A stretch of 64,000 nt of DNA from Nitrospirota bacterium (GCA_963663225.1 OY760142.1:2016001-2080000); one strand, 5' to 3'. Positions 36,007-51,175 are shown, counted from the stretch's first letter. Notes: a model not told the origin generated them from the sequence alone. Numbers and translations: made by a program.

Positions 36007-39000
36007 ATGCGAAAAACCCTTTTCTTGGGAATTGATGTCGGGTCCATAACGGTCAAAACCGTCCTCCTCGACGCGGAAAAAGCCGTATGCTTCGAGGCTT
36101 ATACCAGAATCAAGGGAGATCCGCTTCGGTCGCTGGAAAGTGAACTCAGGGCCCTTTCCGCACGGTTTCCGGAGGACAGCATCTTCGCAGCCGGAATCAC
36201 GGGCAGCGGCGGCAAGCAGGTCGCTGGCGTTCTCGGCGCCGTCTTTATTAATGAAATTCTGTCGCAGTCAGCGTTTGTCGGACACTTCCATCCGGATGCC
36301 CGCAGTGTCATTGAGATGGGTGGCGAGGACGCCAAACTGATCATTCTTACCCGCAAAAAAAACTCTCCGGACGTCAACATCGAAGATTTTGCCATGAACG
36401 CCGCCTGCGCAGCGGGTACCGGTTCGTTCCTTGACCAGCAGGCTTCCCGTCTCCACCTTACCATAGAAGAGTTCAGCACTATTGCCCTCCAATCCAAAAC
36501 CCCCCCGCGCGTGGCTGGCCGGTGCAGTGTGTTTGCAAAAAGCGACATGATTCATCTTCAGCAGATTGCAACGCCGGACTACGATATCGTAGCGGGTTTG
36601 TGCTATGCCATGGCCAGGAATTTCAAGGCAACTGTGGGGCGGGGCAAAAAAATTTCCACTCCGATCCTGTTTCTCGGCGGCGTCGCCGCAAACCTTGGAA
36701 TGCGGCGGGCTTTTTGCGACATACTTGCCTTGTCCGAGCAGGACCTGATTGCACCGGAGCATTTCAACACATCTGGTGCAATCGGTGTGGCGCTCATGCT
36801 GATGCGGCAGCCTTACCGGCCGGAACAGAAGATTGTATATCAAGGCGTGGCCGCTCTTTCCCGGTTTCTCGCAGAGCATGAAAAAAACAACAACGCAAGC
36901 GGCATGAGCCCGCTGATACGGCCATGCGGCATTATGCCGAATCCGGACCAGGATACTGCGCCTGATGCGGACGCACGGATAGACGCATACCTCGGCGTGG
37001 ATGTAGGGTCTGTTTCCACAAATGTCGTTGTTATCGATGGCAGTATGCGTGTGCTGTCCAAACGGTATCTGCCGACAGCGGGAAGGCCAATAGAGGCGGT
37101 CAAACAGGGGCTGGCCGAAATAGGGGCCGAAGTAGGAACCCGGGTGAGAATTGTCGGGGCAGGAACCACGGGATCGGGAAGATATCTGACCGGGGACATG
37201 ATCGGTGCGGATGTCGTCCGGAACGAAATAACGGCACAGGCCACGGCAGCGGCTTCCATCGACCCGCTGGTGGACACGATCTTTGAGATCGGCGGCCAGG
37301 ACTCGAAATACATCAGTCTGCGGGAGGGGACTGTCGTTGACTTTGAAATGAACAAAGCCTGCGCTGCGGGCACGGGGTCTTTTCTAGAAGAGCAGGCAGA
37401 GCGGCTCGGCATCCGCATCAAACAGGAGTTTGAGAGCCAAGCGTTTCAGGCCGCATCGCCGTGCCGGTTCGGAGAACGCTGCACCGTGTTCATCGAGTCG
37501 GACCTGGTGCATGCCATGAATACCGGCGCAGACGTGCAAGAAGTGACCTCCGGACTTGCGTACTCCATAGCGTATAACTATCTTAATAAAGTGGTCGCCG
37601 GCAGGCGCGTCGGGGACCGCATATTTTTCCAGGGCGGTGTCGCCGCAAACAAAGCGGTGATCGCCGCTTTTGAGAAAATAACCGGCAAGCATATTACCGT
37701 GCCGCCGCATCACGAAGTCACGGGCGCCATCGGCGCGGCCATTCTTGCCATGCGCGAACGTTCTGAAAAAAGTGCCTTCAAGGGTTTTGATCTGAGCAAG
37801 CGCGCGTACACAGTCACGACATTCGAATGCGCCGAATGTTCGAACCGTTGCGATGTCCGGCGGGTGAGCTTTGATGGAGAGAAACCTCTTTTTTATGGAA
37901 GCCGGTGCGAAAAATACGATGTGAAGAAAAAGGCATCCTCCGAAGGCGCTGTGGTTGATCTGTTCGGTCTGCGTGAGAAACTGCTTCTCTCAACTTCGCC
38001 AAGCCCAGCTGCTCCGGACAATGCGCCGAGCATCGGCATCCCCCGCATGCTCTATGTGAACGATTATATTCCTTTCTGGCAGGTTTTTTTCAGCGAACTG
38101 GGATACCGTGTGGTTCTGTCCGAACGCACCAACCGCACCCTCATCAGCCGCGCTCTGGAAGCCACGGTGGCAGAAACCTGCTTCCCCGCAAAAGTTGCGC
38201 TTGGTCACATCCAGGATCTTCTGGATAAGCAGGTTGACATCTTGTTTCTGCCAAGCTTCATCCGTTTCCCGCCTTCACAGGACCAGTCAAAGAATGAACA
38301 GGCCTGCCCTTATGCGCAGGCATTGCCGTATATCGCCCGGACTTCCATCCGCTTCGGGAGCACAAAGACGATCGAGCCTATTCTGCATCTTCAGGACGAG
38401 CGGCATTTCAACAAAAGCATGCAAGAGTTGGGAGCAATGCTTGGAGCGGGAAAATCTGCGATAGTAAAAGCCCGGCAGCGCGCCCAGCGTGCGCAAAAGG
38501 ATTTTTCGCATGCAGTGGAGAAGCATGGCCACGATGCCCTCTCCCGTGTCAAGCCTGAAGAAAAAGTGCTTGTGCTTGTCGGTCGAAACTACAATACGTG
38601 CGATCCGGGAACGAATCTGGGTCTTCCTTCCAAGGTACGCGATCTGGGCGTACAAGCCATTCCCATGGATTTTCTGCCGCTCCATCATGTGGATCTTTCG
38701 GGCTATGAAAACATGTACTGGAGATCGGGACGAAAGATTTTGGCCGCTGCACGATTCATCCGGGAGCATCCCAATCTCTATCCCGTATATATTACGAACT
38801 TCGGGTGCGGACCGGATTCGTTCATTACCCATTTCTTTCAAAGCGAAATGGGCGATAAACCGTTTCTGCAGCTTGAAATTGACGAACACAGCGCAGATGC
38901 CGGAGCAATCACGAGAATCGAGGCGTTTCTGGACAGCCTGAAGAACTCACGAAATGACAAGGCCCGTGTTCCTTTCAGCGTATCCAAAAAAGACAATGGA

Positions 39001-40197
39001 ACGCTTCATACAAAAAAAGTGTTTTTTCCATACATGACCGATCATGCTTTTGTGCTTGCATCTGCTTTTCGCGCGTGCGGTGTAGAAGCCGAGGTGTTGC
39101 CCGAGTCTGACGAGGAGACCGTGAGGGTCGGGAGAGAATTCAGCTCGGGCCGCGAGTGCTATCCACTCACTCTCACGACCGGGGACATGATCAAGGCTAC
39201 CCGCAGGCCGGATTTTAATCCGGAAAGGACCGCTTTCTTTATGCCCACAGGAAAAGGCCCGTGCCGCTTCGGCCAGTACCACCGTTATCAGCGGCAGGTG
39301 CTCGATCGGATCGGCTTGGAGCGTGTAGAGATTATTTCACCCATGCAGGACGAGTCAATGCATAAAGACGTGCGCATACTTGACAAAGACTTTGTTCTTA
39401 TGGGATGGCGGGGGGTCTTTGCGGTGGACATGCTTCAGAAGGCGCTGTGGGAATACCGTCCGTATGAAAAGCATCCCGGCCGGTCTGACGCAGTATATCA
39501 AACAGCGCTTCAAAGGGTGCTCGACGCGATCGAGAAGCGGACGGACCTTCTACCGGTACTGCGGGAGGCCTATGAAGACTTCTCCGGCATCAGGATTTCG
39601 GATCGCACCAAACCCGTGATCGGCGTCGTGGGGGAGATCTATATCCGTTCAAACCGGTTCAGCAACGAAGACGTGGTGCGGCAGATTGAAATGCTCGGCG
39701 GTGAAGCCTGGGTGGCGCCGATGTCGGAGTGGCTGCTGTATCTGACCGCCACTGCAAAGGTGTCGGCGACGATGAACCGGTCCTGGAAGGCGCTGCTCAA
39801 AGCGTATTTGACAGGGCGGGTCCAGCACAAAGACGAACGACGCTTTCTGAACGCATTCAACGGAAATCTGCGCAGTCTGCATGAACCAAGCATCAACCAG
39901 ACACTCCGAACGGCGCGTCCCTATATTCATCATTCCTTTGAAGGCGAAGCCGTGCTGTCCGTGGGCAAGGCAATCGATTATATAAACCGCGGCGTCTCGG
40001 GAATTGTGAATGTGATGCCGTTTACCTGCATGCCGGGCACGATCGCGAGCGCGGTGCTGAAACGCGTGCAGGAGGAGCACAATAATATTCCTCTCCTGAA
40101 CATTGCATACGAAGGCCAGGGCGACTCACAGACCATTACCCGACTTGAAGCGTTCATGCACCAGGCGAAATCGTATCAGAAATCAAGGAGGGGATGA
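36007..40197 (+). CDS. Large CoA-substrate-specific enzyme activase (2x BcrAD/BadFG ATPase + DUF2229-like domains)
   Basis: Two GxDVGS...ExGGxDxK...MNxxCAAGTGSFL...RCxVF modules; ETCFPAK, CGPDSF, EIDEH, RECYP, GPCRFG, PFTCMPG. Confidence 0.9.
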   Translation: MRKTLFLGIDVGSITVKTVLLDAEKAVCFEAYTRIKGDPLRSLESELRALSARFPEDSIFAAGITGSGGKQVAGVLGAVFINEILSQSAFVGHFHPDARSVIEMGGEDAKLIILTRKKNSPDVNIEDFAMNAACAAGTGSFLDQQASRLHLTIEEFSTIALQSKTPPRVAGRCSVFAKSDMIHLQQIATPDYDIVAGLCYAMARNFKATVGRGKKISTPILFLGGVAANLGMRRAFCDILALSEQDLIAPEHFNTSGAIGVALMLMRQPYRPEQKIVYQGVAALSRFLAEHEKNNNASGMSPLIRPCGIMPNPDQDTAPDADARIDAYLGVDVGSVSTNVVVIDGSMRVLSKRYLPTAGRPIEAVKQGLAEIGAEVGTRVRIVGAGTTGSGRYLTGDMIGADVVRNEITAQATAAASIDPLVDTIFEIGGQDSKYISLREGTVVDFEMNKACAAGTGSFLEEQAERLGIRIKQEFESQAFQAASPCRFGERCTVFIESDLVHAMNTGADVQEVTSGLAYSIAYNYLNKVVAGRRVGDRIFFQGGVAANKAVIAAFEKITGKHITVPPHHEVTGAIGAAILAMRERSEKSAFKGFDLSKRAYTVTTFECAECSNRCDVRRVSFDGEKPLFYGSRCEKYDVKKKASSEGAVVDLFGLREKLLLSTSPSPAAPDNAPSIGIPRMLYVNDYIPFWQVFFSELGYRVVLSERTNRTLISRALEATVAETCFPAKVALGHIQDLLDKQVDILFLPSFIRFPPSQDQSKNEQACPYAQALPYIARTSIRFGSTKTIEPILHLQDERHFNKSMQELGAMLGAGKSAIVKARQRAQRAQKDFSHAVEKHGHDALSRVKPEEKVLVLVGRNYNTCDPGTNLGLPSKVRDLGVQAIPMDFLPLHHVDLSGYENMYWRSGRKILAAARFIREHPNLYPVYITNFGCGPDSFITHFFQSEMGDKPFLQLEIDEHSADAGAITRIEAFLDSLKNSRNDKARVPFSVSKKDNGTLHTKKVFFPYMTDHAFVLASAFRACGVEAEVLPESDEETVRVGREFSSGRECYPLTLTTGDMIKATRRPDFNPERTAFFMPTGKGPCRFGQYHRYQRQVLDRIGLERVEIISPMQDESMHKDVRILDKDFVLMGWRGVFAVDMLQKALWEYRPYEKHPGRSDAVYQTALQRVLDAIEKRTDLLPVLREAYEDFSGIRISDRTKPVIGVVGEIYIRSNRFSNEDVVRQIEMLGGEAWVAPMSEWLLYLTATAKVSATMNRSWKALLKAYLTGRVQHKDERRFLNAFNGNLRSLHEPSINQTLRTARPYIHHSFEGEAVLSVGKAIDYINRGVSGIVNVMPFTCMPGTIASAVLKRVQEEHNNIPLLNIAYEGQGDSQTITRLEAFMHQAKSYQKSRRG

Positions 40198-40512
40198 AGG
40201 GAACCCGACCTGTCTGCAAACACTGTTTTCATTAATGGCTGGTTAAAATAAAAATGAATTCGAAGATGATTGCAAAATGTAATATTCATTTGTTTTGACG
40301 TTAGGATTTATATTTTCAATCACGACAACAGGGATATCGAAAAGGACCGGACATGGACAGATTCCGTTGATTATCAACTTCGGAAAAGACAATCCGGTGT
40401 ACAGTCTGGAAGTTTCTCCTTAAAATGCAGACGATTCAGTGAAATGTTCTTCAAGTTGTTTTTTGTATAACGTAAATCTACGACAGCAGAGTAATCCGGC
40501 ATCAGCTTGCTC

Positions 40513-40540
40513 TTGACAAAATGCATTTTTGTGTTACAAT
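40513..40540 (+). promoter_or_regulatory. Near-consensus sigma70 promoter for the precursor/rSAM operon
   Basis: TTGACA-N16-TACAAT with extended -10 TG, about 85 bp upstream of ATG 40625 (RBS GAGGT). Confidence 0.7.
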
Positions 40541-40624
40541 AAATAATAAGTAATATTATTTGTCATAAACAATTAAAATTGTCAATTAAGGCTTATTGCT
40601 TTATTTGACGATAAGAGGTTTGTT

Positions 40625-41002
40625 ATGAATGACAAAATCGAAAAGCCGGAAAAATCTATTCAAAAACAGGATGCAGATATTGAAACAAAAAAAATCAACC
40701 GGCGGGAAGCCATAAAAAACATCGCCAAGACTATTGCCGTAGCAGGCGCCTGCACGATCCCTTTTCTTTTTACACAACGTGAAAGTGAGGCCGGCAACAA
40801 GCAGTTTGCGCAAAATTCCAATTACTGCAACTATGCAAACTACAGCGACTACGCGGCCTACGGGAATTATTATAACGTGGCCAACTATGCGAACTACTAT
40901 AATGTCGGCAAAGGGCTCTACCTGAACTATGCCAATTATACAAATTATCGCGACTATATAAATTACCGGAATTACGGAGATTACGCTAACAAGTGTAGAT
41001 AG
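40625..41002 (+). CDS. Putative RiPP precursor: twin-arginine-like leader + (Tyr-x-Asn/Asp)n repeat core
   Basis: KKINRREAIK, hydrophobic stretch, then SEA|G. Core: YCN YAN YSD YAA YGN YYN VAN YAN YYN VGKGL YLN YAN YTN YRD YIN YRN YGD YAN KCR. Lies 20 bp upstream of a radical SAM gene. Confidence 0.85.
   Translation: MNDKIEKPEKSIQKQDADIETKKINRREAIKNIAKTIAVAGACTIPFLFTQRESEAGNKQFAQNSNYCNYANYSDYAAYGNYYNVANYANYYNVGKGLYLNYANYTNYRDYINYRNYGDYANKCR
40823..40990 (+). repeat. 9-nt/3-aa periodic coding repeat (TAY-NNN-RAY)
   Basis: 16 Tyr-initiated triplets with mixed synonymous codons. Confidence 0.9.
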
Positions 41003-41022
41003 TTGGATGCATCCCTGATCGA

Positions 41023-42006
41023 ATGGCAAATCTTCTTCTTACTACTACGTGTGTCCGTTCCTGCCCCTACTGTTTTGCAAAAAGCGAGATGAAAGAAGCA
41101 AATCCCGGAGATGTAATGTCCTGGGAAAATCTGATTTATCTTGCTGATTTTCTGGCCCTTTCCTCGGAAAAACACATCTCTCTTCTGGGAGGAGAGCCGA
41201 CCCTTCATCCCGCTTATGTGGATTTCCTTCTGTATCTTCTTGAGCGCGGTTTTCATATAACCACATTCACCAGCGGCATTCTCTCGCAGGAGAGGCTGGA
41301 AGAGCTGAAACAGTTTATCACTCCGCTGCCCGTGGACCGTCTCAATTTTGTCTGTAATCTGAACGACCCGGAGCAAACACCGGCGCCGGAAAAAGAGCAG
41401 GCGCGGATCAGCGCGTTTCTCTCCCTGATGGGACCGTGGACCATTCCGGGATTCACCATCTACCGGACTGACTTTGATCTGAAATTCATTTTTGAAAACA
41501 TGTCCCGCTATGGCCTGCAGCGCCAGCTTCGACTCGGCATTGCCAGCCCGACTCCGGGTCATGATAACCAGTTTATCGATGTAAACCAGCATAAACAGGT
41601 TGTTGACCGCCTCTATTCTTTTAAAAAAGAAATCGAGCAATTGCGGGTACGCCCCAGCCTCGACTGCGGTTTTCCTCTCTGTGCGTTCAGCGACGAGCAA
41701 CTTGGATGGATTTACCGCCGTACGAGGCATGTGTATTTCGAGTGCGGCCCCACCATTGACATCACTCCGAACCTGGATGTTTACAATTGCTTTCCGCTTT
41801 CCCGGTTCCATAAACGGTCGATCTTTGAATTTACCACATTCAAGGAAGTCATCGATTATTACCAGAACCTGCATAACAAAGTAAGAAAAGAAATTCCCGG
41901 AATGTACGCGGAATGCGGCGCGTGTCCTCACCGGGATGAACAGCGTTGTTCCGGAGGCGGGCTCTGTAATATCATGCACCGGTTTGTTGAAAAGACCACG
42001 GTTTAA
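41023..42006 (+). CDS. Radical SAM enzyme with SPASM-like C-terminus (maturase 1)
   Basis: CVRSCPYC (CxxxCxxC), LGGEPTLHP; ECGP...DVYNCFP...ECGACPHRDEQRCSGGGLC. Confidence 0.9.
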   Translation: MANLLLTTTCVRSCPYCFAKSEMKEANPGDVMSWENLIYLADFLALSSEKHISLLGGEPTLHPAYVDFLLYLLERGFHITTFTSGILSQERLEELKQFITPLPVDRLNFVCNLNDPEQTPAPEKEQARISAFLSLMGPWTIPGFTIYRTDFDLKFIFENMSRYGLQRQLRLGIASPTPGHDNQFIDVNQHKQVVDRLYSFKKEIEQLRVRPSLDCGFPLCAFSDEQLGWIYRRTRHVYFECGPTIDITPNLDVYNCFPLSRFHKRSIFEFTTFKEVIDYYQNLHNKVRKEIPGMYAECGACPHRDEQRCSGGGLCNIMHRFVEKTTV

Positions 42007-42022
42007 GCAGGAAAAATAACGA

Positions 42023-42865
42023 ATGAATTTTCCAAACATTGTTTGTCCATATGACCAGAACCTTTTACAGCGGCTGAAAGGGTATGGAATTGTCGTCCGT
42101 GTTTCCGGTCCGTCAGAGATCATACAGGCAGCGGCCGCGTCAAAGGCCTCAACACGCAACAACCTGCTGAATGTTATCGTCGAATCACGGGAGGCGATGG
42201 ATGCTTTCAAGTTTCAGGATGAATGGCTCGGTATTCCTCTCGCTCTTTTTTTCCCAGAAATGGGAAAGTTCCGCAAATTGGGGGAAAAACTGGAGCAGAT
42301 CCGAAAACTAAAGGCCCATATTTATCTCCCGGCTGAACGTGATGAAAATCTTACTTCCTGCCGGATCCTGTCTTCACTGGGGATCACTTCCTGCCTTGCC
42401 TTCTCACAAGACAAGGCTCCAAACTGGGACTCCCTGGCGGACCTTATGACCTACGCGGTTTTTGGATCTGTCGCGCATGCCCCTCTGGAACCGTTTGCGC
42501 ATATCCGCGGCAACTATGAAGCGAAACAATACGCGGACTGGGGCTCCGTCTGTTTTGATAATCCGCGCGGATATCTGCACGTCGATGCACGGGGGCGCGT
42601 GGCACTTTCGAAGGATGAACTCGCACAGGGAATATTCATAGCCGATGATATTGCGAAGCTGAAAAATCCAATGGATTGCCCGGAATACGCGGAGCGGACG
42701 AATGTTCGGAAGCGTTTTTTTCTGGAGGACCATCCATGCACACGGTGCGAAGGATGGAAGGTCTGCTTGGGGAATTTTATGCGCGACGGAAAGCCTGTCG
42801 ATGGCTGCAGGGAGTTCTGCCGCGAGCTGCTGGTAGCGCTGGAGCAAAAAAAGCAGACCCAGTGA
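42023..42865 (+). CDS. Pseudo-radical SAM/SPASM-like accessory protein
   Basis: No CxxxCxxC motif. HVDARGRVALS resembles the SPASM hairpin with its Cys lost; C-terminal CTRCEGWKVC...GC...C. Confidence 0.6.
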   Translation: MNFPNIVCPYDQNLLQRLKGYGIVVRVSGPSEIIQAAAASKASTRNNLLNVIVESREAMDAFKFQDEWLGIPLALFFPEMGKFRKLGEKLEQIRKLKAHIYLPAERDENLTSCRILSSLGITSCLAFSQDKAPNWDSLADLMTYAVFGSVAHAPLEPFAHIRGNYEAKQYADWGSVCFDNPRGYLHVDARGRVALSKDELAQGIFIADDIAKLKNPMDCPEYAERTNVRKRFFLEDHPCTRCEGWKVCLGNFMRDGKPVDGCREFCRELLVALEQKKQTQ

Positions 42866-42887
42866 CCGTGACTAAAAGAGGTTTGAC

Positions 42888-44009
42888 GTGACGACGGTAA
42901 TTTTCAAAGCGACCGAAGAATGCAATTCACGATGCGCGTACTGCGCCGTGGTGCGCAAAAACCACCTGGGCCCCACCATTATGCCCGCTGAAACGCTCGA
43001 ACGGTTTTTTGTCCGTGTCAACGCTTATCTGTCGGAACGACCTGAGGACCACCTGAAGATCATCTGGCATGGTGGAGAACCGCTGACTTTGGGGCCTGAC
43101 TATTTTTACCGCGCTCTGGAACTGCAGCAGAAACACTGCGCCGACACCTGCGGACAGATCACGCATGAGATGCAGAGCAATCTTACGCTGTTCTCGCGAA
43201 AATTCACGGATGTGTTCCGAAAAATGGGGATCACCTCATTCGGCACCAGTTACGATCCCCGTCCCGGCATCAGGGGGCCCGGAAAAACGCCAGACACAAG
43301 GGAGTATAACAGGCGGTTTCTGGATGCGCTCGCCCTCCTGGAAGAGGAAGGCTTCACGTGGGGCGTCATCTATGTGGTGACGAAGCAATCACTCCAAAAT
43401 CCTCTGGAGATTTTCCGCCTGCTTACGAACATCAATCCGGCAGGGTCTGTTATGTTCAATCCGGTGACGTTCTACAAAACAAACCCTGTGGACCTGGCCA
43501 TTACTGCGGAAGAGTTCGCCGATTTTCTCGGAGCGCTGTTTCCGTACTGGTGGGAAAATCACAACCGGTTCTCCGGTGTCGAGCCGTTTTACTCCCTGAA
43601 GCAGAACATCCTTGAGGGGGACGAGACCCTGATCTGCACCTATTCAGGAAAATGCGGAGAGACACATTTTAATGTCGGGCCGAGTGGCGCGGTCTCGCAG
43701 TGCGGCCGTTCCGCCGACTGGGGACTGATGGACAACGGATCGATCCATGAGCGGTCCCTTAGTGAAATCATGGCCGATCCGCGAAAACAGTCACTCCTGA
43801 AGCGAGCCGAGGTCTTGATAGGAGTGGACTGCGGCGGCTGCCGGTTCTGGAACATCTGCCACGGCGGATGCCCGCTCGACGCCCTGGCGGAGCAGGGAAC
43901 GATCATGCGCAAATCTCCTTCGTGCTGCATCAACAGAAAAGGATTTATAGAAAAATATTTCGAGCCGATTACCGGCATGCGCTATCGGGCGCGCGAGATA
44001 GAGTCATGA
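42888..44009 (+). CDS. Radical SAM/SPASM peptide maturase 2 (anSME-like, WHGGEP type)
   Basis: GTG start after GAGGT; CNSRCAYC, WHGGEPL, MQSN; CTYSGKC...GAVSQC...CGGCRFWNICHGGCP...SCC. Confidence 0.92.
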   Translation: MTTVIFKATEECNSRCAYCAVVRKNHLGPTIMPAETLERFFVRVNAYLSERPEDHLKIIWHGGEPLTLGPDYFYRALELQQKHCADTCGQITHEMQSNLTLFSRKFTDVFRKMGITSFGTSYDPRPGIRGPGKTPDTREYNRRFLDALALLEEEGFTWGVIYVVTKQSLQNPLEIFRLLTNINPAGSVMFNPVTFYKTNPVDLAITAEEFADFLGALFPYWWENHNRFSGVEPFYSLKQNILEGDETLICTYSGKCGETHFNVGPSGAVSQCGRSADWGLMDNGSIHERSLSEIMADPRKQSLLKRAEVLIGVDCGGCRFWNICHGGCPLDALAEQGTIMRKSPSCCINRKGFIEKYFEPITGMRYRAREIES

Positions 44010-44136
44010 ATGGAGCCAGACGATCAACCAGCCGTGCCTGTCGTTCCATGTCTTGTTCTTTTTCTTGTACTGGGTTCAGGTGCATATGCCCAGACTAGGT
44101 AGGATGCTGGTGCCATTCTCGACCAGGGAGAAAACT

Positions 44137-47100
44137 ATGAGCCGAACGCAGAATAAGGCGCTGCTTATTTTTGTTTGTACTATCGCAATCCTGCTTTGGA
44201 GCGAGACGTCCTTTTCGCAGAGCAAGGACGAGGCCGAGCGGCTTTGGGAACTCGGGGAAAAGGCATTTGCGGCCCAGAAGCACCAGGAGGCGCGTACGTA
44301 TTACGAGCAATCCCTTGCACTCTGCCGGCAGAGCAACAACCGAGAAGGCATTGCATCCAACCTGAACGGCCTCGGTGAGGTATATGAGGCACTGGGTGAT
44401 TTCAGAAAAGCGCTTTCGTATTATGAAGATGCCGTCAACACCGCGCGACAAATCAATCACAAGGACCTTATTGCGACGAACCTGTTCAATGCGGCATCAA
44501 TCTACAGTTCCGACCTTCACCAATACGACAAGGCAATGCAGCTTTTTGAAGAGTCTCTCAGGATGTTCAGGGAGCTGAACAACAAGGAAAGCACGGCCAT
44601 CGTACTGTTTAATACGGCCAAGACTTTGCAGTCCCTGGGGCGGTATGAGCAGGCGCTGTCCCTGTTCAATGAGTCCCTCAGGCTGAACCGGGAGCTAAAG
44701 AGCTTGCCGGGCATTGCGGGCAATCTTAACCTGATCGGCAATGTATACGCGCGCCTCGGGCAGTATGACAAACCGTTGCCGCTCCATGAAGAGGCGCTCA
44801 GGATAAACAGGCAACTGGCCGATCAGAAGGAGATCGCATTGACCCTTAGGAACATCGGTGATGCGTACGTCGATCTTCTTGAATACGAGAAGGCATTTTC
44901 CTATTACGAACAGGCGCTGGCAATCCAGAAAAAACAGAATATGAGGGCCGATCTCTCAATAACCCTGACCAACATGGGGGCACTGTATCAAGCCCTCGGC
45001 CGGTACGACAGGGCTCTCGCGGCATACCGAGAGTCCCTTGCCGTCAGCAGGGAAACGGATAATCGCCCCGAGATCGCGACCATCCTGAACAACATCGGCC
45101 ACACCTATGCATCGCTCGGTAAATCGGACGAAGCCCTTTCCTATTATCAGCAGGCGCTGGCGATCGAAAAACAGTTGAACAGGCCGCAGAGGGCAGCGAT
45201 TGTGTACAATAACATCGGCATGGAGCAGTTCCGCAGCGGGCAATATGAACAGGCTCTGTCTCATCTCCAGGAAGCGCTCAGGATCAGCAGACAATTGAAC
45301 ATGGTGCATGATATTACGCTCCGGTTGAACAATATCGGAGCGGTTTACCTGCGGCAGAAAAAATACCGTGAAGCGGAGGAGGTATTCCTCGAGAGAAAGG
45401 CGTTGCAGGCGAAGATTCCGAAGATCAGACTGGTGCATCCTGGCCTGGAGGAACTCTATCTTATCCGGAAACAATATGATGCGGCGCTGGCGCTGCTGGA
45501 GGATCCCGGCAGAAAGCCGACCTGGCGGTCAAACAGCGCCTATTCTCTCGAATATTACACGCATTATGGCGCGGCATTGAAAGGCAGGCTCCGGTATCGG
45601 GAAGCAGCGCAGGCACTGGAGCAGGCGGTTTCCCTGTCGGAAGAGATGCGGCTGAGGGCAGGTGAGCAGAAGAGCTTTTTTGCGGGAGGGGGGTATATCG
45701 GCCGGCTGCGTCCTCACCGCCTGCTTTCGGCAGTGCTTGCGGAACGGTCAATGAGCGGTGAACGATCCGATGCGCAGTTCGCATCCTACGGAAAGGATTT
45801 GGCGTCGGGCGCCTTCTCCGTTGCGGAACTGACGAGGGCAAGAACTCTTCTCGAAACAATGGCGGCTGCCGCGAGAAAGCAGGATAATTCGGAGCTGCCG
45901 GTTGAAATAAAGAACCGGGAAAAGTCGCTCTTCACCGCCTGGGAGGAAATCGAAAAACGGTGGGAAGCGGAGTACCAAAAAGGCGAGGCCGCCGTCAGGC
46001 GTCTCCAGAAGGAAAAAGAAAACCTGAAACGCGAAATCGACTCCCATATTGCAATGGTCAGAACAGCCTACCCGAAATATGCGGCGCTCAATTATCCAAA
46101 TCCGGACCCGGCAAACGAACTGCCACTCAAGGACCAGGAAATCCTGATCGAATATGCACTTCATGAAGACGGCGGTTATATTTTTACGGTAAGAAAAGGC
46201 GGCATACAACGAATTACCAGAATATCAATGAGTACCGAGCAGTTAACAGAGCGGATCGGGCGGTTTATGGAGGCCGTCGGAGCGGAACAAGGGAGAGGAT
46301 TTTCCATGACCCTGGCAAAAGAATTGTATGATGTTTTGTTCGCGCCGGTGGCCGCTGACGTGAAGACCGCTGATACGGTCGTTATTGTGCCGGACGGCAT
46401 CCTTGGCCTGTTGCCGTTTGAAGCCCTGGTCATGGAAACCGGCAAAAATTATACGGACAGTGTGTATGTTGGAGACCGCTACGCCATCACCTATTCCCAG
46501 TCGGCATCCGCCCTCGCACTCGGGCGGATGAGGAGCCCTTCCGGAGCGGTAAAACCGCTGTTCGCTATTGGCAACCCCGTTTTCAGCAAACAGGATCCCC
46601 GCTACATAGCGTATAAACAAGGAAAAGCCCAGCCAACACCGGCATCTCTGGCGCAAGGCGATTATGCATACAGAGCAGTTACCGTTGTACCGAAAAACGT
46701 CACAGCATCTTCTTCCGACGGGTGGGAAGAGATTGTGTTTAATCCGCTCCCGGAGACAGAGGACGAAGTAAGGGCAATTGCCGGTCTCTATAGCGTGCCG
46801 CCATTGCCGCCTGATATTCTTTTGAACATGGCAGCCACCAAGGGCAACGTGAAAAAAGCTCCTTTGAAGCAATACCGCTATCTCCATTTTGCCACGCACG
46901 CCGATCTGCCGGGGAAAGTGCAGGGAATAACAGAGCCGTTTCTGATTCTGGGGCAGGTGGAAAACGAAGGCAAGGATAACGGATTCCTGACGTTGAGCAA
47001 CGTGCTGGATCTCGGGCTTGACGCGGACATGGTGGTTTTGTCGGCATGCATGACCGGAAAGGGCAAAATCATGGAGGGAGAAGGGGTGACCAGTTTTGCA

Positions 47101-47313
47101 AGGGCGTTTTTGCATGCCGGAACCCGCAGTGTGATCGTGAGTTTGTGGGAGGTCGCGTCCCGCCAGACTGTCGAATATATGGAAGCATTTTACGGCGGCC
47201 TTAAAGCGGGCGGGACCAAAGCTGAAGCCTTGAAAAATGCCCGCAGTGTGATAAAATCCAAATATCCGGAACCCTATTTCTGGTCCGCCTTTATTTTGCA
47301 CGGAGAACGATAA
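44137..47313 (+). CDS. Secreted TPR-CHAT (caspase/HetF-associated) protease
   Basis: GGGAG RBS; signal-peptide-like MSRTQNKALLIFVCTIAILLWSETSFS; many TPRs; IVPDGILGLLPFEAL, LHFATHA (His), VVLSACMTG (Cys), SLWEV, PYFWSAF. Confidence 0.92.
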   Translation: MSRTQNKALLIFVCTIAILLWSETSFSQSKDEAERLWELGEKAFAAQKHQEARTYYEQSLALCRQSNNREGIASNLNGLGEVYEALGDFRKALSYYEDAVNTARQINHKDLIATNLFNAASIYSSDLHQYDKAMQLFEESLRMFRELNNKESTAIVLFNTAKTLQSLGRYEQALSLFNESLRLNRELKSLPGIAGNLNLIGNVYARLGQYDKPLPLHEEALRINRQLADQKEIALTLRNIGDAYVDLLEYEKAFSYYEQALAIQKKQNMRADLSITLTNMGALYQALGRYDRALAAYRESLAVSRETDNRPEIATILNNIGHTYASLGKSDEALSYYQQALAIEKQLNRPQRAAIVYNNIGMEQFRSGQYEQALSHLQEALRISRQLNMVHDITLRLNNIGAVYLRQKKYREAEEVFLERKALQAKIPKIRLVHPGLEELYLIRKQYDAALALLEDPGRKPTWRSNSAYSLEYYTHYGAALKGRLRYREAAQALEQAVSLSEEMRLRAGEQKSFFAGGGYIGRLRPHRLLSAVLAERSMSGERSDAQFASYGKDLASGAFSVAELTRARTLLETMAAAARKQDNSELPVEIKNREKSLFTAWEEIEKRWEAEYQKGEAAVRRLQKEKENLKREIDSHIAMVRTAYPKYAALNYPNPDPANELPLKDQEILIEYALHEDGGYIFTVRKGGIQRITRISMSTEQLTERIGRFMEAVGAEQGRGFSMTLAKELYDVLFAPVAADVKTADTVVIVPDGILGLLPFEALVMETGKNYTDSVYVGDRYAITYSQSASALALGRMRSPSGAVKPLFAIGNPVFSKQDPRYIAYKQGKAQPTPASLAQGDYAYRAVTVVPKNVTASSSDGWEEIVFNPLPETEDEVRAIAGLYSVPPLPPDILLNMAATKGNVKKAPLKQYRYLHFATHADLPGKVQGITEPFLILGQVENEGKDNGFLTLSNVLDLGLDADMVVLSACMTGKGKIMEGEGVTSFARAFLHAGTRSVIVSLWEVASRQTVEYMEAFYGGLKAGGTKAEALKNARSVIKSKYPEPYFWSAFILHGER

Positions 47314-47380
47314 TGCGAGGCGATTGCATCAGCATTCCTGCCGATGCGACGTTCTGTTTCAATGATCCAGGAGGACAAGC

Positions 47381-48244
47381 ATGAATAAATTTTTTATTGC
47401 GTTCCTGTTCCTTATTTTGTCGGCATCCGGTCTGCATGCGGTTCAGTCCACGATTACCGAAGCGGAAGGAACGGCGTGCATGGGAGACGACAAGTCCCGG
47501 AAGCAGACTGAAGAAGCGGCACTGACCGCGGCAAAGAAAAAGGCGGTGGAGTACGCCTCTACGTATGTCTCGAGCGAGACCACGGTGAAAAATTTCATTA
47601 CCGAAAAGGACTTTGTGTCCGCGTATGCGAACGCCTCAGTCAGGATTATTCAGGAACTGGAAAAATCCTGGTACAAGGACCCGGTGTCCGGCGATTGCTG
47701 CAAAACAAAGATCAAGGCGGAAGTGCTGCCGGATGAAAAATCGATGGCCCGACTTTCCAAGAGCTCCGCCGTGGCGGACGATCCTTCCGCTCCGCTGAAC
47801 ATAAAAGTATGGACGGACAAGAAGGAATACAAAAGCGGAGAAAAAATAAAAGTTTTTCTGAGAGGCAATAAACCGTTCTACGCGCGAATTCTGTATAAGG
47901 ACGCGGGAGGAGAATTGGTCCAGCTTCTGCCGAATCCCTATAGAAGCAGCACTTATTTCCACGGCGGCACTATTTATGAATTGCCTTCCGGTGATGACAA
48001 GTTCGATCTGGAAGTCGGCCCGCCTTTTGGCAGTGAGAATGTTGTTGTATACGCGAGCACGTCGCCCCTCGGTGAAATCAGTACCCAGACGCGAGGCGGC
48101 GTATATCAGATAAAAACACAGCCTAAAGATGTGGAAATGAAAACACGCGGCGTGGCGTTGGTGCAGAAACCTGAAGGAAAAGCTGGAACCGCCGCAGCAT
48201 CAGAATTTTTTGAAGAAAAAACAATAATAAAAACAACAAGATAA
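47381..48244 (+). CDS. Secreted protein, FlgT_N/LPP20-like N-domain + DUF4384-like C-domain
   Basis: Signal peptide ending LHA; EAEG...AAL..AKKKAVE N-domain; VWTDKKEYKSGE...VQLLPN...PPFGSE...AS domain; two TRG motifs. Confidence 0.75.
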   Translation: MNKFFIAFLFLILSASGLHAVQSTITEAEGTACMGDDKSRKQTEEAALTAAKKKAVEYASTYVSSETTVKNFITEKDFVSAYANASVRIIQELEKSWYKDPVSGDCCKTKIKAEVLPDEKSMARLSKSSAVADDPSAPLNIKVWTDKKEYKSGEKIKVFLRGNKPFYARILYKDAGGELVQLLPNPYRSSTYFHGGTIYELPSGDDKFDLEVGPPFGSENVVVYASTSPLGEISTQTRGGVYQIKTQPKDVEMKTRGVALVQKPEGKAGTAAASEFFEEKTIIKTTR

Positions 48245-48379
48245 GTTTCAGTACGGGAATGTTGATTATCCATAAAGGCACTTTTTCATGATGCACCGGT
48301 ACCGCGTTTTTATTTTTTTTCACAGTACCAGCAATTGTCATGCCTGAATATAATTATTGGTTTTTTTTAAATTATCAGC

Positions 48380-48408
48380 TTGACATGGTGTATGGAAAAA
48401 GGTATTCT
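48380..48408 (+). promoter_or_regulatory. Sigma70 promoter of the csp gene
   Basis: TTGACA-N17-TATTCT. Confidence 0.65.
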
Positions 48409-48464
48409 TTTATATCCGCGGATATGTCCCGGACAATTTCATTCAGATGCAGAGGAGAAACAGA

Positions 48465-48668
48465 ATGGCAAATGGTGTAGTGAAGTGGTTCAACAACAGC
48501 AAGGGGTTTGGGTTCATCACGCAGGAAAATGGTGAGGACGTATTTGTTCACTTTTCAGCAATCACGGGAGATGGATTCAAGTCTCTCAATGAGGGCGACA
48601 AGGTGACCTTCGAAGTTGTGAAGGGCCCCAAAGGACTTCAGGCCGCGAACGTTGCCAAAGTCTCCTAA
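48465..48668 (+). CDS. cspA: Cold-shock protein
   Basis: GVVKWFN, KGFGFI (RNP1), VFVHFS (RNP2), [10 protein letters not shown]. Confidence 0.95.
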
Positions 48669-48703
48669 TCCTGACTGAAAAAAATATCACGTACAACAAT
48701 TCC

Positions 48704-50346: not shown

Positions 50347-50769
50347 TTAGTTTCCAGTCGTAAAAGAAAACGTATAGGTGTCCAGCATATTTCCGGATAA
50401 GTCAGTAAAACTAAAATTCCTATTTGCAGGATTCAATGTAAAAGTAATTGGTGTGTTTGGCGATAAATCAGAACTGGAATTGTCTCTTGAAAGGAATAAA
50501 GTTGTCTTGTCGCTTGACCATTGAACGGGGGTAGTGTTCGATAAAGCCCAACCCCCTGATGTGTTGACACTTACCGCTCCTGTCATCGCTTCACTGAACA
50601 CTATTTGAATTTGCTGGGTATTCCGTGCTACGCCCGTTGAACCATTTGCAGGAACGGTCGATACAACATATGGTTTTGTCGTATCACTATTTGCAGCCCC
50701 GCCACATCCGGTAATAGTCCAAAGAGCGGCAATGAATATCCACACAAAAATTGTTCGATTTATTTTCAT
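50347..50769 (-). CDS. Lipoprotein with Ig-like (Big_5/SbsA-type) domain
   Basis: ITGC-GG lipobox; DTTKPYVVSTVPANG...FSEAM...DLSGN...FSFTT. Confidence 0.8.
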   Translation of the reverse strand: MKINRTIFVWIFIAALWTITGCGGAANSDTTKPYVVSTVPANGSTGVARNTQQIQIVFSEAMTGAVSVNTSGGWALSNTTPVQWSSDKTTLFLSRDNSSSDLSPNTPITFTLNPANRNFSFTDLSGNMLDTYTFSFTTGN

Positions 50770-50997
50770 ATGATCTCCTTGGTAATAACCTGCGCTTCAG
50801 AAGCTGTTGTTATATAAGGGGTAAAATGATAAGTAACGTAGGTTGGGCTGTACGTTTCATGTAAAGCCCAACGCATCTGTAATTGAAAGATGTTGGGCAA
50901 GTTTACCCTTTTGCCCAACCTACGCACTTATGATCTCCTTGGCAATAGCCTGCACTTCAGAAGTAGTTGTTGTGTAAGGGGTAAAACGATAAGTTAC
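50769..50997. repeat. 69-bp direct repeat (60/69 identical, period 160 bp) enclosing a REP-like doublet
   Basis: Copies at 50769-50837 and 50929-50997; between them CGTAGGTTGGGC...GCCCAACCTACG (50837-50924). Confidence 0.88.
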
Positions 50998-51175
50998 AAA
51001 GGGAAGCTTTTCGGTAGACTATAGAAAAAAGAAAGGCATTGCAAGAAGAAAATACGAAAGTATTCGTGCATTAAATTGCATTTTATAACATTTTTTTATG
51101 AGTGCCAGAAGAAGATTTATTTTGTGCCGTTGCCAATTAGCAAAGGCTTAAAGAAAAATTCGCAGCATGTAGAAA

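Follow-up and report, generated by a model that had tools for sequence, protein, structure and literature searches.

The subject of this report is a run of genes in a 64,000-nucleotide stretch of DNA from a Nitrospirota bacterium (GCA_963663225.1 OY760142.1:2016001-2080000; the whole stretch is called the window here, and positions are counted from its first letter). An earlier note, made from the sequence alone, had listed at this place a near-consensus promoter, a peptide precursor with a repetitive core, two enzymes of the radical S-adenosylmethionine (rSAM) type, which we call rSAM-1 and rSAM-2, a protein between them without the rSAM motif, referred to below as the middle protein, a TPR-CHAT protease and a DUF4384 protein, and every feature on its list was found where it had been placed (Table 1). 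The first four genes are indeed tightly packed, with gaps of 20, 16 and 22 nt, and another 127 nt lead up to the ATG of the TPR-CHAT gene. The conservation of these genes gives good support to the view that they form a new rSAM peptide-maturation system.

Table 1. Features of the cassette in the window.
Feature	Position	Strand	Remarks
Promoter-like site, sigma-70 pattern	40513-40540	+	TTGACA, 16 nt, TACAAT, TG before the second hexamer
Precursor, 125 aa	40625-41002	+	
rSAM-1, 327 aa	41023-42006	+	CVRSCPYC at residues 10-17
Middle protein, 280 aa	42023-42865	+	no CxxxCxxC
rSAM-2, 373 aa, GTG start	42888-44009	+	CNSRCAYC, WHGGEPL
TPR-CHAT protein, signal-like N-terminus	44137-47313	+	ATG at 44137; longest open reading frame from TTG 44053
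DUF4384 protein, signal peptide	47381-48244	+	membership uncertain

The cassette recurs well beyond the window. Homologues of the middle protein amount to 433 representatives (clusters at 50% identity) among 1.84 billion at E<=0.001, with 342 at <=1e-10 and 264 at <=1e-30, and to 108 clusters in a 5.8-billion set, all of them unnamed or labelled 'hypothetical' and derived from metagenome-assembled genomes of Thermodesulfobacteriota, Deltaproteobacteria and Nitrospirota. Its occurrence is sparse: within the window's phylum 8 of 401 genomes encode it, the window's own included, and within another order 5 of 83 do. In the 22 genome-contig loci that we retrieved with the middle-protein alignment (loci carry L numbers below), rSAM-1 stands immediately before the middle protein without exception and rSAM-2 follows it in 18, while three of the remaining loci run into the contig end and one, L041, lacks rSAM-2. 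The trio is also present in five further loci from genome searches where the contig allows (L011, L012, L014, L015 and L016), and its recurrence across loci and in several phyla shows a conserved cassette and supports the earlier suggestion of peptide maturation. A small open reading frame (ORF) bearing the leader described below lies in the flanks of 20 of the 22 loci (13 by a strict screen and 7 by a looser one), the two loci without it being contigs of 6.4 and 4.6 kb, and it is likewise linked to the cassette in the genome-search loci L011-L018. Its position varies: some copies are upstream, in one arrangement at 1.7 kb with another gene in between, and others are downstream in opposite orientation; we therefore favour selection on the linkage over an accident of one operon. 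The neighbourhood survey thus upholds the pairing of repeat ORF and cassette that had been proposed from the window.

The precursor matches no Pfam or NCBIfam family, and its gene is present in a single copy in the window's genome. The protein is built of a polar N-terminus, a twin-arginine motif, a moderately hydrophobic stretch and a Tyr-repeat core of about 60 residues that ends near a Cys. The window core contains 18 Tyr, with 13 of the 17 Tyr-to-Tyr spacings being multiples of 3, and the residue two positions after Tyr is Asn in 12 cases, Asp in 3, Val in 2 and Ala in 1; when the core is read in frame with the repeat, 16 Tyr-x-X3 triplets emerge (X3 being Asn in 12, Asp in 3 and Ala in 1). 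The only tandem repeat at the DNA level in the precursor gene is one weak 9-nt array, and the repeat is therefore one of protein rather than the trace of a recent DNA expansion. A profile of seven precursors retrieved 57 proteins at E<=0.01 (8000 candidates scored), 34 of which were inspected as sequences, and in an alignment of 29 relatives the twin-arginine pair is invariant (29/29). Across 78 unique cores, Ser, Asn or Asp occupies the second position after Tyr in 807 of 1116 cases (72%), compared with 15-46% at other offsets; shuffled cores reach a mean of 371 (sd 13.7), and none of 1000 shuffles attained 807. For isolated Tyr residues (none at +/-3), Ser, Asn or Asp is found at +2 in 69% and at -1 in 16%, and the register is therefore Tyr-x-X3. 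The conserved unit is Tyr-x-(Ser/Asn/Asp), which has the aromatic-x-x shape used by three-residue cyclophane enzymes, as the earlier note had perceived in the single core at hand. All in all the precursor cores are acidic or neutral, not basic. We also observed two types of conserved C-terminal ending, each in its own subgroup of precursors: a motif with a Cys and then several consecutive Lys, and a Pro-Pro-Pro-Tyr-Ser-Ser-Arg tail (seen among proteins P0113-P0115, P0121, P0124 and P0130); such endings could be sorting or cleavage signals.

Pfam, NCBIfam and PADLOC runs name neither the precursor nor the middle protein, and both rSAM enzymes stay far below the curated family cut-offs, in agreement with the earlier statement that the architecture was not recognised as a named family. 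That rSAM-2 has a full SPASM domain is confirmed by its eight C-terminal SPASM Cys, which are kept in 23-25 of 25 relatives, and by the generic SPASM model TIGR04085 (40 bits, cut-off 27), the only one of 44 matching NCBIfam models to pass its cut-off; the Pfam SPASM model falls just short (19.7 bits, cut-off 21.5). The top model is that of anSME (TIGR03942; 134.4 bits, cut-off 349.45), with lower scores for DynA (NF041298; 132.4 bits, cut-off 450), DarE (NF038005; 108.4 bits, cut-off 650), AmcB (82.6 bits, cut-off 425), GrrM/OscB (79.7 bits, cut-off 310), YhhB (63.2 bits, cut-off 445), FxsB (60 bits, cut-off 370), HxsB (50.2 bits, cut-off 370) and XyeB (40.4 bits, cut-off 450). These scores place rSAM-2 in the neighbourhood of anSME, DynA, DarE and GrrM, which lends support to the earlier reading; several of the closest models describe enzymes that form cyclophanes or ethers, namely DynA, DarE, AmcB, GrrM/OscB, YhhB and FxsB. 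Compared with solved structures, rSAM-2 aligns with anSMEcpe over its full length (E 1e-15) and with ChlB over the N-terminal part (E 4e-6). The stretch C272-G273-R274 is invariant in 25/25 relatives, and an invariant Gly (25/25) aligns with Asp277 of anSMEcpe, which we take to be the catalytic base of anSME.

The locus that lacks rSAM-2, L041, and a matching short ORF in L040 encode a leader peptide without the Tyr-x-(Ser/Asn/Asp) unit. The coincident loss of rSAM-2 and of the unit fits a role of rSAM-2 as the enzyme for Tyr-x-X3, in what is one lineage only. In this variant (L041, 6001-7755), the middle protein is fused to a GT9 domain; its short leader peptides are encoded at 4617-4841 in L041 and at 2839-3009 in L040.

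In rSAM-1, Pfam recognises the general Radical_SAM domain only (PF04055, 55.5 bits), and its 28 NCBIfam matches all lie far under their cut-offs. In an alignment of 16 relatives (69% mean column identity), the CxxxCxxC motif is kept and seven further Cys are invariant. The structural model of rSAM-1 (pLDDT 78.7) matches the folds of SuiB (E 2.3e-9, TMq 0.62-0.64), SkfB, anSME, CteB, EpeE and ChlB, and rSAM-1, too, is therefore a peptide-maturase-like SPASM enzyme; its C-terminus, according to the conserved Cys and the fold, is of a divergent SPASM type. The middle protein matches no Pfam, NCBIfam or PADLOC family. Four of its Cys (C239, C242, C248 and C262, in the arrangement CxxCx5C...C) are invariant in 29 sequences, and the CxxxCxxC motif of the SAM cluster is absent from all 29. 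Its model is of high quality (pLDDT 91.9, pTM 0.89), and its best matches in the Protein Data Bank (PDB) are CteB, PqqE and ChlB (best E 1.4e-3, TMq 0.44-0.61), a result of modest significance as none reaches E<=0.001; SuiB (E 0.093, TMq 0.54), SkfB (TMq 0.47) and anSME (E 0.1, TMq 0.58) rank lower. The likeness to rSAM/SPASM maturases combined with the missing motif points to a degenerate relative rather than an active member, so that the predicted fold backs the label 'pseudo-rSAM' given to this protein before. Sequence comparison adds little: BLASTP of rSAM-1 against rSAM-2 gives E 0.37, and hhalign of the middle-protein alignment gives E 0.67 against rSAM-1 and E 0.017, confined to the CxxCx5C stretch, against rSAM-2. 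The kinship of the trio is thus a matter of fold, since nothing beyond that stretch is seen in the sequences. For the middle protein, the ESM Atlas gave nothing but 'hypothetical protein' clusters, one of which has SPASM on 17% of its members. A complex prediction of the middle protein with precursor residues 1-62 scored 0.13 against a mark of 0.32 and, run as it was without controls, has no bearing either way.

The accessory genes differ between lineages. Among the 18 loci with rSAM-2, a GT9 glycosyltransferase is fused to rSAM-2 in 15 (in L034 split by a frame break) and encoded by a separate gene in one, and the remaining two have TPR-CHAT instead; the genome-search loci have the fusion in L011 and L018 and a separate GT9 gene in L014-L016. 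Most relatives combine GT9 with Tyr-x-Ser cores, which makes the window a minority variant. Use of a remotely encoded GT9 by the window variant was considered and rejected, the genome holding only weak matches of 35 and 22 bits, which are ordinary heptosyltransferase-size genes elsewhere. As a further observation on the GT9-type clade, a protein of about 400 aa without a Pfam family is encoded directly upstream of rSAM-1 in 12 of the 22 loci (e.g. L022:3769-4956); in L033 a 797-aa ORF contains another copy as a fusion, and neither the window nor L011-L018 encode the protein.

The TPR-CHAT protein (PF12770, 212 bits, plus TPR families) is a caspase-like protein of clan CD and the product of the sole CHAT gene in the window's 3.26-Mb genome. 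A TPR-CHAT gene directly follows rSAM-2 in three other species (L027, L052 and L053); in L027 its start overlaps the end of rSAM-2, and it is one of four CHAT genes in about 4 Mb. The window protein and that of this second lineage align end to end (28% identity, E 1e-91), the His and Cys motifs falling at matching positions. A signal-like segment stands at the start of all cassette TPR-CHAT proteins. In a tree computed for 25 loci from the trio's concatenated protein sequences (IQ-TREE, quick mode, LG+G4), the window's genus stands apart from the group of L027, L052 and L053, the CHAT label needs two changes, and a single CHAT clade is rejected by the approximately unbiased (AU) test (p-AU 3.8e-5, delta lnL 108). 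TPR-CHAT thus replaces GT9 in two separate lineages; its presence in the second one and its being the only CHAT gene of the window's genome make the link between CHAT and cassette stronger than could be told from the window by itself. The third residue of the core tracks the type of accessory gene: X3 is Asn or Asp in every CHAT-type core, and in the 23 GT9-locus cores scored Ser leads in 19 and ties for first place in L029, L033 and L034, which leaves L017 as the only one led by another residue (mostly Asn). TPR-CHAT is an accessory module of the window variant and probably processes or binds the exported peptide in the periplasm. The DUF4384 protein (PF14326, 84 bits), which the earlier note had counted with the system, adjoins the cassette only in the window's genus (L012/L042) and has no BLAST match in L027, L052 or L053; it was therefore rejected as a core part. 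In two species of the second CHAT lineage the place of the DUF4384 gene, after TPR-CHAT, is held by a gene for a lipoprotein-like protein of about 275 aa without a Pfam family (L027:10990-11814, L052:1783-2619).

The leader of the precursor resembles a twin-arginine translocation (Tat) signal. The Tat-signal model TIGR01409 matches 18 of the 29 aligned precursors (best E 5.6e-4), as does a model of a Tat-dependent iron oxidase, and one relative is annotated at NCBI as a Tat-signal protein; TatC is encoded in the window's genome. A Pfam scan of 13 proteins (six of the cassette and seven flanking) found no ATP-binding cassette (ABC) or PCAT exporter and no PqqD domain, consistent with the absence of exporter and PqqD/RRE genes reported before. 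The missing exporter gene would be explained by a Tat-like leader, and the Tat route would suit a peptide that needs to be completed by cytoplasmic iron-sulphur enzymes beforehand.

Regarding expression, the promoter-like site, which is 85 nt before the precursor start, agrees with the consensus at 11 of 12 positions, as claimed in substance, and is the best of 12 sites across 40100-48700. Shuffled sequences give a mean of 7.8 such sites against the 12 real ones, so that the site counts as a consensus match only and at most as a candidate promoter. No RNA data set is listed as covering 40500-44100, two public runs labelled RNA-Seq that cover parts of the stretch are probably DNA, and a search of the window against Rfam gave no match. 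In a public biofilm metagenome run (X6), one 11.5-kb contig spans 40400-48248, including the CHAT and DUF4384 genes, with 307 differing letters and 7 gaps relative to the window; that data set thus contains a close relative whose genes are arranged identically. The neighbours of the cassette are housekeeping genes, not a defence island. Directly upstream (36007-40197) lies a gene for a 1396-aa fusion of two BcrAD/BadFG ATPase modules and DUF2229, with an additional weak match to a 2-hydroxyglutaryl-CoA dehydratase D-component, and this fusion is kept upstream of the cassette in the same genus (L012). Downstream of the cassette, a minus-strand gene for a Big_5-domain lipoprotein (50347-50769) is immediately preceded by a non-coding stretch with a 74-nt direct repeat (50769-50842 and 50929-51002; 85% identity, 160 nt apart, no Rfam match).

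Taken together, we favour, with a probability of roughly 0.55, a conserved and unnamed rSAM maturation cassette for a Tyr-x-(Asn/Asp) peptide with a twin-arginine leader, together with the following course of cyclophane formation and export. Gene content, conservation and motifs are observed; from there on we infer. The precursor would be synthesised with a leader bearing the invariant twin-arginine motif. In the cytoplasm, the anSME/DynA-like rSAM-2 would take a C-beta hydrogen from the third residue of each unit and bond this C-beta to the ring of the unit's Tyr, two residues upstream. The result would be a triceptide-type three-residue cyclophane, made repeatedly along each peptide, and rSAM-1 and the middle protein would add a second modification or hold the leader. 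The leader might then act as a Tat signal, by which the rigid finished peptide would be exported without a dedicated ABC exporter. In the lineage of the window a periplasmic TPR-CHAT protease might bind or trim the product; in most other lineages GT9, usually fused to rSAM-2, would act on Ser-rich cores instead. Our confidence decreases from the cyclophane chemistry over Tat export to processing by CHAT. A bolder version, which we regard as rather unlikely, envisages a Tat-exported array of up to 16 Tyr-x-Asn/Asp cyclophanes whose twin-arginine signal doubles as the leader of a RiPP (a peptide made by the ribosome and modified after translation), with the middle protein as a leader-holding proofreader that delays export. 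Clan CD peptidases prefer to cut after Asn or Asp, and TPR-CHAT might accordingly cut after each (modified) Asn or Asp to release many identical cyclophanes of tripeptide size, or the uncut array might be an envelope effector against phage akin to HxsA.

Several observations weigh against the course that we favour. The anSME and DynA scores of rSAM-2 are equal for practical purposes (134 vs 132) and, like the others, under all curated family cut-offs, and for rSAM-1 and the middle protein we can only guess at the roles. The monophyly of the CHAT loci was tested after the FastTree version of the tree had been seen, on a group defined by gene content. As to export, the precursor of the window itself has no match to TIGR01409 at E<=1, shows two weak matches to Tat-dependent families (E 0.023 and 0.11) and carries a Lys within the hydrophobic stretch. 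The L040/L041 peptides keep the twin-arginine motif with no hydrophobic stretch after it, which suggests that the motif is probably also what the maturases recognise; it may be a maturase recognition element in the first place and a Tat signal in the second. A lipobox-like Cys follows the hydrophobic stretch in several relatives, so that some products may stay anchored to the membrane and not be free natural products.

An alternative, which we regard as unlikely, is that the cassette produces an exported, rSAM-matured effector of the envelope or periplasm, analogous to the HXS antiphage system and active in defence, matrix or adhesion, rather than a diffusible product; cross-linking could occur all the same. 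The gene logic is that of HXS, in which a small accessory protein binds one rSAM enzyme (PMC13128918), and the HxsA4 model matches 4 of 29 precursors (best E 2.9e-7). The patchy distribution over several phyla (8/401 and 5/83 genomes), the lipobox-like sites and the long core of about 60 residues would also suit an effector. However, neither rSAM enzyme belongs to the Hxs family (HxsB 50 and 15 bits against 370, with no HxsC or HxsD match), PADLOC gives only generic viperin and TPR similarity, Pfam and NCBIfam find no peptidoglycan-binding domain, and the neighbours are housekeeping genes. The acidic or neutral charge of the cores moreover means that the DNA-binding mode proposed for HxsA is not transferable.

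The chemistry could also be different: rSAM-2 might be an oxidase of the anSME type that converts the C-beta of Ser or Asn/Asp to an aldehyde or dehydro product without a link to the ring, Tyr providing context only. This reading, which we hold to be improbable, draws on TIGR03942 being the top model (134 bits), on anSMEcpe being the best solved relative over the full length (E 1e-15) and on the Ser at the third position in most relatives. It is at odds with a score far under the cut-off of 349, with Asn or Asp instead of Ser or Cys two residues after 15 of 18 Tyr of the window core, with the lack of a sulfatase and of a Cys/Ser-x-Pro-x-Arg motif in the precursor, and with the invariant Gly at the position of the presumed base Asp277. 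Similarity to anSME is in any case a poor guide, as DarE is closest to anSME in sequence yet forms cyclophanes (PMC10288494). More radically, the small ORF could be an unrelated, Tat-exported protein of low complexity beside an rSAM operon with another substrate. Low-complexity ORFs are easily over-read, the window precursor matches no family, and in some loci the ORF is 1.7 kb upstream or, where downstream, encoded by the opposite strand; but this explanation is barely credible given an ORF found in 20 of 22 loci despite its shuffled position and strand, an invariant leader motif, an accessory gene type that follows the third residue of the core, the coincident loss of rSAM-2 and Tyr-x-X3, and a single genomic copy that sits beside the cassette.

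We conclude that the cassette is real and constitutes a variant, so far uncharacterised, among repeat peptides modified by rSAM enzymes, and that its product is probably a peptide with many cross-links for which no studied counterpart exists. It represents a multi-phylum family without a name in Pfam, NCBIfam or PADLOC, for which the middle protein with its 433 representatives can serve as marker. Should the chemistry be as proposed, the cyclophane RiPPs gain a Tyr-x-Ser/Asn/Asp branch with unusually dense rings and, if export holds too, the first case of a Tat-type signal serving both as leader and as export route. The association of GT9 with Ser cores and of a caspase-like protease with Asn/Asp cores constitutes a natural experiment in accessory modules, and the constant pair of rSAM-1 and a degenerate rSAM poses an enzymological question. 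In light of the parallel with HXS, rSAM-matured repeat effectors of the periplasm may form a wider class.

No description of the cassette was found in published full texts, a search that did not extend to the supplementary tables of the triceptide network (about 3900 pathways). Among characterised enzymes, anSME scores best with rSAM-2 both as a model and among solved structures, the likeness being full-length and including both auxiliary clusters, and it differs by the gap between score and cut-off (134 vs 349), by the invariant Gly at the Asp277 position and by its substrate: Pfam finds no sulfatase among the cassette proteins, and the precursor has no Cys/Ser-x-Pro/Ala-x-Arg motif. DynA and DarE, second and third for rSAM-2 (132 and 108 bits), make ring-to-C-beta and ether links on aromatic residues. 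Their precursors are short, with a single core and ABC export, their systems have neither a second rSAM nor a pseudo-rSAM, and rSAM-2 stays below their cut-offs of 450 and 650.

By the proposed chemistry, the triceptides (XyeB, GrrM/OscB, FxsB, ChlB, HaaB, YhhB and HtkB) are the nearest kind. They are built on repeated aromatic-x-x units in which the ring is joined to the C-beta of the third residue, and Tyr-based units are known from them, the native unit of ChlB being YDR (PMC11499958). Akin to them, the cassette has repeated aromatic-x-x units, an anSME-like SPASM maturase without an N-terminal RiPP recognition element (RRE), and an rSAM-2 with partial matches to AmcB, GrrM/OscB, YhhB, FxsB, XyeB and ChlB. 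As opposed to them, its rSAM-2 is below every family cut-off, a second rSAM and a degenerate rSAM-like protein are always present, and it combines a Tat-like leader with a GT9 or TPR-CHAT accessory and up to 16 tandem units; its cross-link is a proposed one.

By architecture, the closest analogue is HXS, a system active in the periplasm in which a pair of rSAM enzymes and an accessory protein mature a protein that has a signal peptide and HxS repeats (PMC13128918). The two differ in that the repeats of the cassette are based on Tyr rather than His, that it has no peptidoglycan-binding domain, and that its accessory is a degenerate rSAM of 280 aa instead of the small HxsD. Membership in HXS is not indicated by the models, with HxsB at 50.2 bits for rSAM-2 and 15 bits for rSAM-1 (cut-off 370), no match to HxsC or HxsD, and nothing in PADLOC beyond generic viperin and TPR similarity; HxsA-type models match 4, 3 and 1 of the 29 precursors, the window's not among them. 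What the cassette would share with HXS is a signal-peptide protein whose short repeats end in Ser, a pair of rSAM enzymes that have auxiliary clusters, an accessory protein and, as we propose here, maturation in the cytoplasm followed by action in the periplasm.

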